The notes under the pieces are model-generated. The model was given only the letters and a program-made list of their open reading frames with translations, was not told the DNA's origin and made no database searches. This document shows, in pieces, positions 1 to 14,439 of a stretch of DNA of 64,000 nt (position 1 is its first letter; every line of letters begins with the position of its first letter). The stretch lies in the IMG/VR virus record IMGVR_UViG_3300021958_011541, positions 16,001-80,000 of that record, one strand, 5' to 3'. Source of the DNA: a virus (taxonomy: Duplodnaviria > Caudoviricetes). The position numbers and the translations under genes are program-made.

Positions 1-225
1 GAAGGGATTACTGTATACCCTCAGCTTTCAGTGTGAACATCAGTTCTACGAGTTCCTACTTGCACTACGCTTGGACTGGGAATCCTGCCTCAAATCATTC
101 GATTCATTGGCACGCCACCACAGAGAAACGTATACTTTATCTCGCTCACAACGAGATTATTCAGTCACCCACAGGAGATCTCCGTCGAGATTTCCAAAGT
201 CATTAAAATGTTAAAGATCAATTAT
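1..225 (-). ncRNA. Candidate structured non-coding RNA, 3' part beyond the left edge, family not identified
   Basis: About 46% GC over 1-180 against strongly AT-rich flanks; no long minus-strand ORF; local hairpins (139-144/152-157, 178-182/187-191); directly downstream of a TTGACA-N17-TATTAT promoter. Confidence 0.55.
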
Positions 226-231
226 TCGTAT

Positions 232-260
232 ATAATACGAAAACTAACTAGATTTGTCAA
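232..260 (-). promoter_or_regulatory. Sigma70-type promoter for the candidate ncRNA
   Basis: TTGACA (260-255), 17 nt, TATTAT (237-232). Confidence 0.8.
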
Positions 261-495
261 CATTTTTTTTGCAAAAATTAAAAACTAAAAATATATTTTT
301 TATATGCTTTATAAAAACATAACTTTTGTTAAAGAAGTTTGGCGCTGGTTTGACTTTGTCCACCCTGTCTATTGATGACTGGGTTAAACTATTTAACATT
401 GGACACAATAACTTAACTTCTCTTTCAGAAAGGAAAAGTTTTTTATTTTTAAAATAAACAAACCAAAAATCTTCTTCGTGGTATATATTTTTCAA
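244..495 (-). CDS. Hypothetical protein
   Basis: 83-aa ORF coupled to the upstream gene by a 4-nt overlap; no recognised motif. Confidence 0.55.
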   Translation of the reverse strand: MKNIYHEEDFWFVYFKNKKLFLSEREVKLLCPMLNSLTQSSIDRVDKVKPAPNFFNKSYVFIKHIKNIFLVFNFCKKNVDKSS

Positions 496-3603: not shown

Positions 3604-3858
3604 TTATCTTCTTCGTGGTCTCCTTAAAGGTTTTTTGCTTGGACTATTTTTTTTTGTTAGCCCTTTTTTGGACATAGACTCCTTTAGTTCCACAACAAAA
3701 TCGGTGACGATTGTACTATCTGGATCTTCTAACTGTTCTTTTCCTATAAAAAAAGAAAAAGTTAAAGGTTTATCTGGCAGTCTGCTACCAACAACAGTTA
3801 TAGTTTGATTATCTTTAGTCCAAGAATAAAACTGCAAGTTTTTCCCCTTTTCGATCAT
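3604..3858 (-). CDS. Hypothetical protein with basic C-terminus
   Basis: 84-aa ORF, 4-nt overlap with upstream gene. Confidence 0.65.
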   Translation of the reverse strand: MIEKGKNLQFYSWTKDNQTITVVGSRLPDKPLTFSFFIGKEQLEDPDSTIVTDFVVELKESMSKKGLTKKNSPSKKPLRRPRRR

Positions 3859-8929: not shown

Positions 8930-9363
8930 TGGTGGAGGTGGCGGGAGTTGAACCCGCGTCCTGATAGCCTTCAAGCTAACACGTCTACAAGTATAGTTAA
9001 TTTTTTTTATGGTTTTGATATTAACATCCAACCCTCTGTTTCAATTATTCACCTAGAACTAGGGCCCCCGAATACTCAGTGGTACAGTTTTTGATACAGA
9101 TAAACTTTTTCTGTTTTGCAGATCGATGACCCCTTTGCCTCTTTATCTGCGTCAAGAAGTAAGAGGCTAACAGCCTATGCTGCTAGGGCGAGCTTGCGGC
9201 TCTTGTAACCGAAGCGCTTTGCAGCGATACGATTTTTGAAGCCGAGAGCTCTAACATGTTTTTTAGCGCCATGTAAAGCTTTTGCACATTGATAGGGGAG
9301 CCGTAGTGCAATCTCCCTCTTGCAGTGTTAGAATTCAACTTCAGTCAAATCCAGAACACCCCC
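8930..9363 (-). ncRNA. ssrA: tmRNA, one-piece, 434 nt
   Basis: 5' GGGGGTG pairs with 3' CACCTCC-ACCA including G3.U70; T-arm GCGGG-TTCAACT-CCCGC; internal reading frame ends LALAA-stop (9285-9175). Confidence 0.97.
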
Positions 9364-9406: not shown

Positions 9407-11857
9407 TTAAGTCAAATTAATTTTTAACTTTCCTTTTGAAATACTAAGAGTTAAACTCGAGGAAGATATTGGACAAGAGGAAGACTTACTTTCTAAAATT
9501 ATTTTAGCAAGGTCATTTTCTAATTCTTTTTTAATTATATGTTTAACTGGCCTTGCCCCATCATTTAATTTAATTGCTTTATCTGAAATATATTTGTATA
9601 CAGCAGGTTTAACGACAATATTATTAATCGAAGAATTGATTTTAGAAAGACTTTTGTCTAGCTCTAATTTAGAAATTTTGAGTAAATCTTGTTCTGAAAA
9701 TGTATTAAATACAGCAAAAGTTTCTATACGATTAACTAATTCAGGTTTTAATTTTTTCTTTGCCGCTTCAAGAATTTTATCAGTTTGATCTTCCTTGGTA
9801 TTTGAACTCATGAAACCAACTGTAGAGCTTTTTTTAAGAAAGTCTGATCCAATATTTCCTGTTATTATAATAATACAGTTTCGAAAAGAAATCAATCTTC
9901 CCGAGCTATCAGTTAATTTTCCTTCTTCAAGAATTTGAAGCAATAAATTTGTTACATCTTCGTGAGCCTTTTCCACTTCGTCAAAAAGCAAAACCGAATA
10001 AGGTTTTTTTCTAACTCTTTCTGTCAAAGCTCCAGAAGATTCAAAGCCTACATATCCTGGTGAAGCTCCCACAAATTTTGCCGTTGAAGCTTGTTCTGAA
10101 TACTCTGACATATCAATATGTATTAAGCTTTTTTTATCTCCAAAAGCTAAATTTGCAACTTGTTTTGCTAAGTATGTTTTTCCTACACCACTAGTTCCCA
10201 GACATAAAAAACTACCTATTGGCTTTTCTTCATCTTTTAAACCTGCCTTATTTCTAATTAAGGTCTCGCAAATAGAGTGAATTGCTTCGCCTTGGCCAAT
10301 AACAACGTTTTTAAGTAAAGATTCTAGCTTTAAAAATTTGTCAGCTTCTGAAGTTGAAATGTCATCAATTGGAACTCCAGTTTTTTGAGATACAACTTTA
10401 TATAAATCTTTTTTACTAACTACAATTTCTTTAGAAGTGGAGTCTTCTGCCCAATCTTCAATAACTTCTTGGTATTTTTTCATTAACTTGTCTCTTTTTC
10501 GCATAATAATATTAGGCTCGCTTGATTTTAGCTCGACTTCGTATAGTTTATTAATTTCTGATTCAATCAGCAATGCTTCTTCGGGCCTTTTGAATGCATG
10601 AATTTTTGATTTTGCCCCTGCTTGATCAATTAAATCAATTGCTTTATCTGGCAATTGTCGATCTAATATAAATCTCGAAGCAAGCTTTATAGATTCTTCT
10701 AATAATTCATCTTCATATCTTACTCCATGAAAAATTTCATACTTTTCTTTTAAACCTTTAAGAATCTCAAGGCAATCTTTTTCATTTGGCTCTTCTATTA
10801 AAATAGGTTGAAACCTTCTATCTAATGCTGCGTCTTTTAAAATTGTTTTTCTATATTCTTCTTGGGTCGTTGCGCCTATGCACATGATATCTCCCCTGGC
10901 AAGCATAGGTTTAAGTATATTGGCTGCATCCATTGTACCCTCTGCACTACCAGCTCCAACTATCGAGTGTATTTCATCAATAAATACAATTGCATTTGGG
11001 TCTTTTTTAATTTCATCCATAGTATTCTTTAAACGTTCTTCAAACTGACCTCTATATTTCGTGCCTGCAATCATGCTTGCCATATCTAAAGAGTAAATTT
11101 TTTTCTTGTATAAAAATTCAGTTACAGTTCCTTCGATAATTTTTTGAGTTAAACCTTCTATCACTGCAGTTTTTCCTACACCAGCATCCCCTAAAAGAAT
11201 CGGATTATTCTTACTTCTCCTACAAAGAACTTCTGAAATATCTTTAATTTCTTTATCTCTGCCTATGACTTTATCATACTTTCCCAGTTCTGCTTTAGAA
11301 TTCATACAAAAGAAAAAATTAGATTTAAGAGATTCTTTATTGTCTTCAATTTCTTTTGGAAGATACTTGGCTTCCGCAGATAATCTTGTAGATTCTAAAG
11401 TATCTGCACTTGATATCAAAAACTGAGATCTTATTGTCAGAATACAGGATTGTAAACTCACTTCATTGCTTAGAAAAAATTCAGAAATTAAATTTTCTTC
11501 CTTTTTGAAGATTGATAAAAGTATGTGTTGTACTCCTATGTAATCATGCTCGTGCTTTTCTGCTTCCAATACTGCTCCGCCCAAAATAGATTTGTATTCT
11601 GCTGAAAAATAATTTTTTTTCGTTGGAGATGTTTGATTCTTTTTTAGTTTTTTAGAAATAAAAATTGTGAGATCTTTTCTATTCAAAGAAAAAGTATCAA
11701 ATAAAACCTCCAACGCTTGATTGTCAACTTTAGCTAATGCTAAACATAAGTGGTCTTCATTCACTACTCTTTTGTTATAAGAAAGCGCAAGCTTTCTTGA
11801 AGCTGCAATAATTTCTTGCGCTCTTGGGGTAAAATTAGGTTTAAGGTCCATATTCAT
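9407..11857 (-). CDS. clpC: ClpC-type AAA+ chaperone/protease ATPase subunit
   Basis: Clp-N domain, GDAGVGKT and GTSGVGKT Walker A motifs, GTKYRGQFEERL, short middle domain, VGF ClpP-docking loop. Confidence 0.9.
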   Translation of the reverse strand: MNMDLKPNFTPRAQEIIAASRKLALSYNKRVVNEDHLCLALAKVDNQALEVLFDTFSLNRKDLTIFISKKLKKNQTSPTKKNYFSAEYKSILGGAVLEAEKHEHDYIGVQHILLSIFKKEENLISEFFLSNEVSLQSCILTIRSQFLISSADTLESTRLSAEAKYLPKEIEDNKESLKSNFFFCMNSKAELGKYDKVIGRDKEIKDISEVLCRRSKNNPILLGDAGVGKTAVIEGLTQKIIEGTVTEFLYKKKIYSLDMASMIAGTKYRGQFEERLKNTMDEIKKDPNAIVFIDEIHSIVGAGSAEGTMDAANILKPMLARGDIMCIGATTQEEYRKTILKDAALDRRFQPILIEEPNEKDCLEILKGLKEKYEIFHGVRYEDELLEESIKLASRFILDRQLPDKAIDLIDQAGAKSKIHAFKRPEEALLIESEINKLYEVELKSSEPNIIMRKRDKLMKKYQEVIEDWAEDSTSKEIVVSKKDLYKVVSQKTGVPIDDISTSEADKFLKLESLLKNVVIGQGEAIHSICETLIRNKAGLKDEEKPIGSFLCLGTSGVGKTYLAKQVANLAFGDKKSLIHIDMSEYSEQASTAKFVGASPGYVGFESSGALTERVRKKPYSVLLFDEVEKAHEDVTNLLLQILEEGKLTDSSGRLISFRNCIIIITGNIGSDFLKKSSTVGFMSSNTKEDQTDKILEAAKKKLKPELVNRIETFAVFNTFSEQDLLKISKLELDKSLSKINSSINNIVVKPAVYKYISDKAIKLNDGARPVKHIIKKELENDLAKIILESKSSSCPISSSSLTLSISKGKLKINLT

Positions 11858-11868
11858 AATAGGTTACA

Positions 11869-14439
11869 CTAATCTACATCACTAAGTTTCATATAAATCT
11901 TGTGATCTAAGATATTCATGCTGTTTGCGAATAAAATATCATCTCCCTTTCTTCCAGTTACTGTAATTATATTGCCTTTCTCTGGAATAATTCCGCCAGA
12001 ATCGGTATATTTTGATAAAGTTAATCTATTTCCAAAGTCTCCCATCATAATATCCATACTTCCCACTTCATCAGTCATTGTTAGTTTAACATAAGGATTT
12101 CCATTTCTGGACTTTCTTTTTATAACATCCGATACAGTGCCTATAAAAACGTCAGACTCGTCTTTAGATAAAGATCTAAAATCAAAACTGTCTTTTATAA
12201 GATGTCCCGAGGACTTAAAAATTGAGTTAAGTTTACAGGTATAAGAATATCCTAATAATTTATTCTCGAAATACCAATTTGCAAATAATTCATGAGATTT
12301 ATTTTTGTCATAGATTTTTTTATAAGAATCAAATTTCTTTTTAAATGTTGCAAAACGCTTTTCTGTCATTAGTTTTTTGCCGTCATCTCCTACCAATATT
12401 CCTTTTTTTGCATCTGAAATTGCTTTTAATAAACTAAAGTTATACTTTTCTCCTAACTGATAAAAGTTTCTTTTTTCCCTCTCAGTTAATAGATTAAAAG
12501 ACTGGGCTTCCAAAACTAAAAGCGATCGATTGGTTTTATAGCTAGACAGCGCTCCTGCCTGAATTAAGGAAGATAAGGCTCCAATGTTTAGGCCCGCTTG
12601 CTTTGCAGCAATAAAGATATCGTATTTATTTGGAGTGTCTGAATCTCTAAAATCTCTCAGAGCTTCAAAGGATTTTTCGCTAACACCCTTAATGCTATTT
12701 AAGCCAAATCTAATGTTTGATTCTTCTATAGAAAAGTCTATGTTTGACTTAGCTAAATCAGGAGGAAGTAATTGAAAATTAAACCGAGAAAGTTCTTGGC
12801 AAATCTTATTGATTTCTTCCTGAGGAGACGGCTCGAATTTAGTCATCTTAAGCAAAGATAAGAAAAACTGTTGAGGATATTTAAATTTTAAGTATACTGT
12901 CCAAGCAGAAAGTATTGCATAACTGATACTGTGAGACTTATTAAAAGAATAGTTTGCGCTATCTTCTGCAACCCTCCACAGAACATCTCCTGCATCTTCT
13001 GAAAGATTGTTTTCTTCAATTTTAGATTTGATTTTTTCTTGCCAAGCAGGCATTTGATCTACCTTTTTCTTTCCAACGATTCTTCTTAATTGCTCGGCTT
13101 CATCAAGAGTGAAGCCTATTTTAACCGCCATTTGCATTAACTGTTCTTGGTAAAGAGGAATGCCTGCTGTAGGCTCTAAAATTTCATCAAATAGTTCGTG
13201 AACGCTTTGAGAGTTTCCTGTTTCTCTATAGGCCGAGTAGTCGTTTAAAAAATCTAGGGCTCCAGGCCTTGCAATAGCAATTACAGCACTAAGCTCATCT
13301 AGATTTCTAGGTTTAATTTTTTTGCATACTCTAAAATCTGTATCCGCTTCAATTTGAAATATTCCATGAGGAGAAATCAAGTCTTGCAAGCTATCATATA
13401 TAAGCTTGTCTGAAGTCTTGATGTCTTGAGGTTTGATATTTAAAGCATTACAAGTATTGTATATTACACTCAAAGTTCTTAAGCCTAAAATGTCAAACTT
13501 AACAGTAAGTTCTGCTACCCAATTCATATCATAACCACTAATAATATCTCCTTCGGAGTTGGTCTGTAAGGGGCAAATATCCTCTAATTTTTGATATGAA
13601 ATTGCTATGCCACTTGGGTGAACGCCTGTATTTTTATTAAGGCCCTCTAACTTTTTTGCAATTTTTATAATGTGCTTGTTATCTTTAGACCAAGCGTTAA
13701 ACTTTTCGCTTTCTTTTGCAGCTTCTTCTATAGGTAAGACTTTACCAAACCTTTTAGGAATAAAGTCGCTAACTTCATTTACTTCTTGTTCTGTAAGATT
13801 ACCTACTAATTTACCACATTCTTTAATGCAAAGTTTGGAGCTTAGGGTATTAAGCGTTAAGATTTTGCATGTTCTTGATGGATACTTATTTTCAATATAT
13901 TTAATTACTTTTTGTCTATGTTCGTAAGCAATATCATTATCTACGTCTGCAAGTAGACTGCCATCTAAATAAGTTATACCATTCTCTTCTATTTTCTTTG
14001 CCCTACTCTTAGAAACAAATCGCTCAAAGAATAAATCGTTCTCTATAGGATCTACTTGCGTTACCCCAATAAGATAAAGAACTAAACTACCTGCAGCAGA
14101 GCCTCTTCCTGGCCCTGTAGGTATGTTATTGTTATGGCAATAATTTAATATATCCCAGTTAAGCAATATATAATCTATGAAACCTAGTTCATTAAGAATT
14201 GATAGCTCTTCCTTTACCCTTTCTTTGTAAGATTTAATATTCTTTTTATTAATAGGTTTTTCTTTTAAGCCTTGAAGGCATAAAGATGTCAGGAATTTTG
14301 TATTCGAAGAATCTGCACTTAAGCCTAACCCTTCATACATTTCTTTCTCGATAATAATTTCTGGCAATCTTACTCCAGGAGGAGCAAAATTTTTGTAAGT
14401 TTCAAACCCTTCTTCAAAACTCATATTTCTACCTCCCAT
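11869..14439 (-). CDS. dnaE: DNA polymerase III alpha catalytic core lacking the PHP domain; likely start 14424
   Basis: GPGRGSAAGSL, DVDND, HPSG, KFDILGL, YSFNKSH, C-terminal OB fold; ATGA overlap with the exonuclease gene at 14421-14424. Confidence 0.95.
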   Translation of the reverse strand: MGGRNMSFEEGFETYKNFAPPGVRLPEIIIEKEMYEGLGLSADSSNTKFLTSLCLQGLKEKPINKKNIKSYKERVKEELSILNELGFIDYILLNWDILNYCHNNNIPTGPGRGSAAGSLVLYLIGVTQVDPIENDLFFERFVSKSRAKKIEENGITYLDGSLLADVDNDIAYEHRQKVIKYIENKYPSRTCKILTLNTLSSKLCIKECGKLVGNLTEQEVNEVSDFIPKRFGKVLPIEEAAKESEKFNAWSKDNKHIIKIAKKLEGLNKNTGVHPSGIAISYQKLEDICPLQTNSEGDIISGYDMNWVAELTVKFDILGLRTLSVIYNTCNALNIKPQDIKTSDKLIYDSLQDLISPHGIFQIEADTDFRVCKKIKPRNLDELSAVIAIARPGALDFLNDYSAYRETGNSQSVHELFDEILEPTAGIPLYQEQLMQMAVKIGFTLDEAEQLRRIVGKKKVDQMPAWQEKIKSKIEENNLSEDAGDVLWRVAEDSANYSFNKSHSISYAILSAWTVYLKFKYPQQFFLSLLKMTKFEPSPQEEINKICQELSRFNFQLLPPDLAKSNIDFSIEESNIRFGLNSIKGVSEKSFEALRDFRDSDTPNKYDIFIAAKQAGLNIGALSSLIQAGALSSYKTNRSLLVLEAQSFNLLTEREKRNFYQLGEKYNFSLLKAISDAKKGILVGDDGKKLMTEKRFATFKKKFDSYKKIYDKNKSHELFANWYFENKLLGYSYTCKLNSIFKSSGHLIKDSFDFRSLSKDESDVFIGTVSDVIKRKSRNGNPYVKLTMTDEVGSMDIMMGDFGNRLTLSKYTDSGGIIPEKGNIITVTGRKGDDILFANSMNILDHKIYMKLSDVD

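Follow-up and report, generated by a model that had tools for sequence, protein, structure and literature searches.

A manA-family RNA gene in a viral contig

The left edge of the DNA that we analysed, a 64-kb stretch of an 80-kb viral record (hereafter the window; G000:C1:16001-80000, with a legible left flank), carries what is very probably a gene for an RNA of the manA family, Rfam RF01745 (probability about 0.95). Run against the window only, the Rfam model matched the minus strand at 192..1 with 58.5 bits and was flagged as cut at the 3′ end; the E value against the whole 64-kb window was 2.4e-12. When the left flank was included, the match covered model positions 1-192 of 192 (L001 1692..1492, where window position = L001 position − 1500) with 76.7 bits and an E value of 5e-19. 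Both matches, that of the truncated window copy included, exceed the curated Rfam gathering threshold for this family (55.2 bits), which rules against the suggestion of the initial annotation that the RNA might be an unnamed one. Our own covariance model extended the first hairpin, P1, by three pairs beyond the start of the Rfam match at window 192. The gene has the following extent:

Window 195..1 and the next 9 nt beyond the edge (G000:C1:15992-16195), minus strand: manA RNA, about 204 nt

The 80-kb record has no second manA copy, and the Rfam search, which the initial annotation had proposed, found no family besides manA in the stretch. A BLASTN search with the locus found no match among 50,697 deposited phage genomes; manA at this locus is detectable by pattern or model searches only. 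Minimum free energy (MFE) folding of the stretch gave z = −1.49, which is not significant, and it is the covariance-model match and the covariation described below, not the folding energy, that indicate an RNA beyond chance.

The initial annotation had described a structured non-coding RNA transcribed leftward from its own promoter; the model match and covariation uphold that description. Its supporting observations were also borne out: the GC content, given as about 46%, was measured as 0.46 at window 1-200 compared with 0.24-0.35 in the next kilobase; no minus-strand open reading frame (ORF) of at least 30 aa lies within window 1-243; the GAGGAAAGUCC box of RNase P RNA is absent from the stretch at up to two mismatches; and no tRNA was found there. 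It had, however, taken the stretch for the beginning of a large ornate RNA, and leftward extension, which it had itself recommended, showed that the RNA ends 9 nt past the edge, at about 204 nt in total, and that a conserved protein gene begins 15 nt later. That a giant RNA of GOLLD or ROOL size, or an unnamed one, continues leftward of the window was suggested by the window-edge position and the phage context only. The manA match spans the RNA from end to end, and searches with the GOLLD and ROOL models were negative at E values up to 10 in the window and up to 1 once the flank was added, so this reading is now exceedingly improbable.

The same can be said of a coding explanation, which the initial annotation had named as a possible refutation of its own call: that the stretch is the 3′ end of a conserved plus-strand protein. 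Plus-strand frame 2 is open over window 2-214, and a TAA closes it at L001 1469-1471, 30 nt left of the edge. ORFs in this frame have only TTG or GTG starts, with no ATG, and are 47-69 aa long, and single-nucleotide indels among relatives break the frame. Substitutions within the helices are compensatory and not synonymous-biased, so we rejected a plus-strand C-terminus with a spurious RNA signal as having almost no chance of being correct.

Fold and covariation

The manA fold consists of P1 followed by a closing helix, P2, around arms P3 to P9. In the window copy, these elements are arranged as follows:

Window 174..195, minus strand: P1 hairpin, GGAAAUCUC-GACG-GAGAUCUCC, with one A·C mismatch
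Window 168..173, minus strand: P2, 5′ strand of the closing helix, UGUGGG
Window 1 to 5 nt past the edge, minus strand: partner strand of P2, CCCACA, from the flank sequence
Window 134..165, minus strand: P3a/P3b arm with the conserved junction GACUGAAUAA, from model match and covariation
Window 113..125, minus strand: P5 and loop L5, UGUGGUG, with a U·C mismatch in P5 of the window copy
Window 86..112, minus strand: P6, a long clade-specific arm, UGCC...GGCA, with an inner GAAUC/GAUUU stem
Window 73..85, minus strand: P7 and loop L7, UUCCCAG, with CCCA in place of ACCA
Window 24..63, minus strand: P8 arm, with the L8 segment ACUG at 44..41 and a GAAC/GUUC stem that has two possible registers
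Window 2..22, minus strand: P9 hairpin, GAGGG-UAUACAGUAAU-CCCUU, with the L9 segment CAGU at 13..10

P2 was invisible to the initial annotation because its partner strand lies mostly beyond the window edge. Three conserved blocks of manA, the GUGACUGAAUAA junction, the GUGGUG loop and the UAUACAGUAAU loop, are exact in the window copy, and the fourth, the ACCA loop, is altered to CCCA.

Two pattern scans of viral contigs yielded more than 130 manA loci. Eleven close clade-mates of the window copy each scored 71-88 bits on the Rfam manA model, and from these we built a model, R1, and aligned its 94 matches, 90 of which were distinct. Across these 90 homologues, standard pairs filled 90.3% of cells, compared with 33-46% when the partners were slid by 1-3 columns; the alignment was fitted to R1 and therefore leans towards structure, although the margin is large. 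Comparison of homologues, another step advised by the initial annotation, revealed compensatory changes on both sides at 46 of 59 pairs, and none of 500 shuffles reached the observed values. The nearest relatives comprise contig L129 together with L136, L137, L142, L143 and L144, which we reached through the conserved downstream protein. Pairing among them is about 94% (94.2%), with eight compensatory pairs distributed over P1, P3a, P3b, P6, P7 and P9. Compensatory changes in P1 were seen in L129, L136 and L142, and P3b of L136 carries U-A to C-G changes at two pairs. R1 scored 152-257 bits within the clade but 27-70 bits on members of the main group. The window manA thus belongs to a divergent clade.

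Two loop-loop complementarities deserve separate treatment. GUGGUG in L5 is identical in all 88 members compared, a uniformity that is partly built in, as the pattern used to collect most loci demanded GTGGTG. Its partner in L7 is ACCA in 86 of the 88, and ACCA was absent from the collecting pattern. L7 reads CCCA in the window copy and in L129, UCCA in L136 and GCCA in L004; with CCCA, the L5-L7 contact of the window copy is reduced to three pairs. For the second contact, CAGU in L9 is complementary to ACUG in L8, giving four pairs in the window copy. Across the family, L8-L9 maintains 4-6 pairs in one fixed register with compensatory changes (C-G to A-U, G-C to U-A and U-A to A-U). Comparing the longest L8-L9 complement with that of swapped partners gave no signal; one motif is common to most members, which explains this outcome, and the register-fixed table is the informative one. 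As read from the sequence, the L8-L9 pairing may form within one molecule, as a pseudoknot, or between molecules.

Promoter and leader

The promoter reported by the initial annotation, TTGACA-N17-TATTAT, was recovered by our scan as the top site in the region (window 260..232, L001 1760..1732; 11 of 12 matches). Together with the neighbouring elements it is laid out as follows:

Window 244..495, minus strand: upstream 83-aa gene, ending between the −35 and −10 boxes
Window 255..260, minus strand: −35 box, TTGACA, within the 3′-terminal codons (V-D-K) of that gene
Window 232..237, minus strand: −10 box, TATTAT, after a 17-nt spacer, from the promoter scan
Window 196..225, minus strand: transcribed leader of about 30 nt, outside the Rfam model
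Window 221..203, minus strand: leader core, TTGATCTTTAACATTTTAA, 19 nt, AU-rich, as conserved as the RNA core in the lineage

Promoter-like sites are not in excess over chance in this region (8 found, 5.5 expected). This one recurs in place in the nearest relatives, as TTGACA-17-TATAAT in L129 and TTGACA-17-TATTAT in L142. Transcription probably starts near window 225. Near-consensus sigma-70-type promoters were found in 77 of the 87 manA contexts on viral contigs with enough flank. The end of the −10 box lies 4-6 nt before P1 in most contexts, which would place the start at the first base of the RNA; the distance from promoter to manA is 36-88 nt in the window's clade.

The 83-aa gene that contains the −35 box is real: its protein is 48% identical in L129, with all indels in multiples of three, whereas the RNA itself is about 90% identical between the window copy and L129. 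Even among relatives with protein identities of only 50-67%, the leader core is unchanged or almost unchanged. Sister phages (described below) retain the leader without the ORF that follows the RNA in the window phage, and the leader of L136 differs. We rejected, as a conserved device, a clamp between leader and start codon (AACAUUUU with AAAAUGUU in the MFE fold); the pairing is missing in L136 and the ORF is missing in the sister phages. Searching the 64-kb window for trans targets turned up neither a second nor an antisense copy of the leader or the 3′ tail.

Other upstream arrangements were seen among the relatives. In L136 (3730-3783) and L004, the leader gives way to a long conserved hairpin (GGAACAAUGAGUUGAUAGCUGAGUAUC.GACAUUGACUCGUUCC) that immediately precedes manA and could be another RNA element. 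A second promoter-like site, TTGAGA-16/18-TAAAAT, lies between manA and the first promoter in L005 (1286-1313), L011 (8128-8155) and L012 (8098-8069). In these sister phages the site overlaps a AATAAATAAAATA run resembling a T4-type late promoter, and tandem promoters may therefore make manA there.

The phage lineage

The window encodes a DnaE-like Pol III alpha subunit (11869-14439, minus strand) that is less than 30% identical to that of any deposited phage, and its PhoH is less than 42% identical to those of deposited phages. Three CheckV-complete sister genomes of 184-214 kb have polymerases 60-67% identical to that of the window phage. No match to Photo_RC (psbA) or Pfam Gp23 was found in these three genomes; the Gp23 search found no match anywhere, controls included, so this null says little by itself, and the DnaE polymerase is the positive evidence against a T4-like phage. 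Main-group manA loci carry gp32. Together, the polymerase of the lineage and the sister genomes without a psbA or Gp23 match place this manA clade beyond the group from which the family was described, the T4-like cyanophages. Genomes of the lineage are about 135-215 kb at 33% GC, and the lineage seems to be uncultured.

The window also contains a full-length one-piece tmRNA gene (8930-9363, minus strand; Rfam RF00023, 102.6 bits), for which ARAGORN reads a long basic tag ending in ALAA. The gene sits immediately downstream of one for an 816-aa Clp/ATP-dependent protease-like protein (window 9407-11857).

Gene neighbourhood

All genes left of manA lie on the same strand as the RNA, which sits in the potential 5′ UTR of the next one, the 104-aa gene noted above. 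This gene encodes a conserved hypothetical protein with homologues 56-64% identical in about a dozen clusters, and is followed by a 76-aa gene, a 67-aa gene, a DUF6557 gene and a GT7-type glycosyltransferase gene. Further on, seven Sulfotransfer_2 genes stand among glycosyltransferase and capsule-synthesis genes. Over about 15 kb, this part of the record (G000:C1:1-14800, L135) has its genes on a single strand; the transferases among them are of the GT7, GT32-like, nucleotide-diphospho-sugar, capsule-synthesis and GT1 types, and the block as a whole is a phage locus devoted to a sulfated glycan. Near-consensus promoters of their own precede several genes of the block, for example a 12/12 site at L135 14817..14789. 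Our scan found no terminator between manA and the 104-aa gene and no strong minus-strand terminator in the 16 kb downstream of manA. With no terminator after manA in the window phage, the same transcript should run into the 104-aa gene. An unusual terminator made of P2 and the U-run is no more than speculation, since the scan found no terminator and the geometry is non-canonical.

The gene order dCMP deaminase, dUTPase, PhoH, 172 aa, about 85 aa, manA gap, 104 aa is repeated in relatives, and L136 and L142 retain both the U-run and a manA-to-ORF spacing of 14-18 nt. In relatives L139-L141, manA is absent and the 104-aa cassette follows immediately on another gene. The sister phages have a strong, self-contained, GC-rich terminator of 13-14 bp located 13-40 nt past manA, followed by a new TTGACA promoter; manA in these phages is a gene of its own. 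In 56 of 87 contexts across the family, manA is followed within 60 nt by the start of an ORF, and no terminator intervenes. The first downstream genes are mutually unrelated and include gp32, DUF6561/Sm-like, transaldolase, ThyX, phosphomannomutase, Hsp20 and 2OG oxygenases.

At many loci (for example L045, L065, L095 and L016), phoH and manA share a strand and are no more than about 1-2.5 kb apart, with phoH downstream of manA in the T4-like main group and upstream of it in the window phage. This proximity may be a chance co-location in early/auxiliary gene regions. One small viral contig, L093, carries two manA copies 3.3 kb apart (117-315 and 3636-3836).

What the RNA may do

We consider that there is about an even chance that manA in this lineage is an autonomous, self-associating RNA module rather than a metabolite switch. 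A host RNA polymerase of sigma-70 type would start at TTGACA-17-TATTAT and make the leader of about 30 nt, as the conservation of the promoter suggests. Next would come the 204-nt RNA, which model match and covariation show to fold into a nine-helix body, and the transcript would continue, judging from the gene layout, into the 104-aa gene and the three small genes that head the glycosyl/sulfotransferase block. manA would thus be a module in the 5′-terminal part of an early transcript. Like the manA RNAs of solved structure, its copies would associate through L8-L9 and the weakened L5-L7 loop-loop contacts. We favour autonomy on the basis of the promoter-manA-terminator units of the sister phages, the 104-aa cassettes that occur without manA, the varied downstream genes and a cryo-EM preprint (10.64898/2026.07.01.735769). 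Several observations weigh against this reading. Where an ORF follows within 60 nt and no terminator intervenes, the layout is that of a classic 5′ UTR, in keeping with the Rfam label 'Cis-reg'; and self-association would be weakened in this sublineage, where L5-L7 is limited to three pairs by CCCA or UCCA in place of ACCA. The reported manA multimers were formed in vitro only, at high RNA and Mg concentrations, with constructs that have no long P6 of the kind seen in this clade (10.64898/2026.07.01.735769). The stronger proposal that manA is not a cis-regulator but a trans-acting, self-assembling phage RNA particle is one that we put forward tentatively, as we consider it somewhat doubtful. 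If it is true, the stand-alone manA genes of the sister DnaE phages would be genomic evidence that cages matter in infection, and the long P6 arm and 19-nt leader would tune assembly or processing.

The 5′-UTR layout also fits a rival reading, in which manA is a cis-acting leader or riboswitch that senses a metabolite or condition and sets the translation of the 104-aa gene and sugar genes, or the survival of their transcript. manA was rated a probable cis-regulator and riboswitch candidate when it was linked to mannose and fructose genes (Weinberg et al. 2010; PMC2864571). The end of manA 15 nt before an ATG with no terminator between, the retention of the 14-18-nt spacing and U-run in L136 and L142, the 56 of 87 contexts with a nearby ORF, and the glycosyltransferase and sulfotransferase genes downstream all agree with such a role. 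However, the downstream genes are functionally unrelated across the family and thus hard to fit to one ligand, and in the literature that we searched neither a ligand nor a tested function is reported for manA. In sister phages the RNA is terminated before a fresh promoter; in relatives L139-L141 the 104-aa cassette occurs without manA, and the sugar genes of the window phage are served by strong promoters of their own. The leader-to-start-codon pairing of the MFE fold is not kept in L136, and no expression platform or conserved alternative pairing with the start region was found across L136 and L142. Overall, we regard regulation in cis as possible but rather unlikely.

Heterogeneous downstream genes would also be compatible with an RNA that acts on the polymerase itself. 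Processive antiterminator RNAs such as HK022 put and Bacillus EAR provide precedents, and a promoter-proximal manA could by analogy let early transcripts read through terminators. The fixed placement, with 4-6 nt between the −10 box and P1 in most contexts, and the presence of terminators just downstream in some phages are consistent with this; these supporting points are all positional. Against it, the window phage has no strong minus-strand terminator within 16 kb downstream, manA is far larger than put with no experimental hint of such an activity, and conserved loop-loop complementarity would be superfluous for this role. Antitermination is therefore improbable, and an autonomous, self-associating module remains the reading that we favour.

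Comparison with known RNAs

GOLLD and ROOL, to which the initial annotation had likened the RNA, are also phage-borne, ornate and non-coding, but they are three to four times longer and their models do not match. Both reportedly form RNA-only multimers, according to structures from 2024. The analogy thus failed as an identification and held in one respect, as manA also builds RNA-only cages in vitro (10.64898/2026.07.01.735769). The wcaG motif (RF01761), the other marine-phage riboswitch candidate of the 2010 study, is associated with exopolysaccharide genes (PMC2864571); it has a different fold and no match in the window or flank.

With manA RF01745 as originally described (PMC2864571), the window RNA shares the helices, the conserved blocks GUGACUGAAUAA, GUGGUG and GGGUAUACAGUAAUCCC, and a promoter-proximal, phage-borne setting near sugar-metabolism genes. 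The clade differs by its long P6 arm, 7-nt L5 and conserved 19-nt leader, and the window copy by CCCA for ACCA in L7, the P5 mismatch and a host phage of the DnaE-polymerase lineage instead of a T4-like cyanophage. As the family is already catalogued, the novelty is modest and consists of these clade-specific features and the unusual uncultured phage lineage; taken alone, a match to a catalogued RNA family would be routine annotation. It gains value because manA has newly been reported as a former of RNA-only cages, yet is filed as a riboswitch candidate.

In that cryo-EM work, manA formed decamers and a 60-mer cage in vitro via L5-L7′ and L8-L9′ kissing loops, with a short GNRA-capped hairpin at P6 of the constructs (10.64898/2026.07.01.735769). 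Compared by eye and script, at the level of sequence and not of structure, the window RNA has the same family and core as manA_A0F1, 67AA and 6FAB, and the same kissing-loop sequences as A0F1 and 67AA (L5 GUGGUG, L8 ACUG and L9 ACAGU). It differs in its P6 of about 27 nt and in having only three L7-to-L5 pairs. The L8-L9 contact, one of the two structural loop contacts, covaries in nature, and the family reaches past the T4-like cyanophages into DnaE-polymerase phages. Together with the self-contained genes of the sister phages and the unrelated downstream genes, these comparative facts argue that manA has a function of its own that is worth testing.
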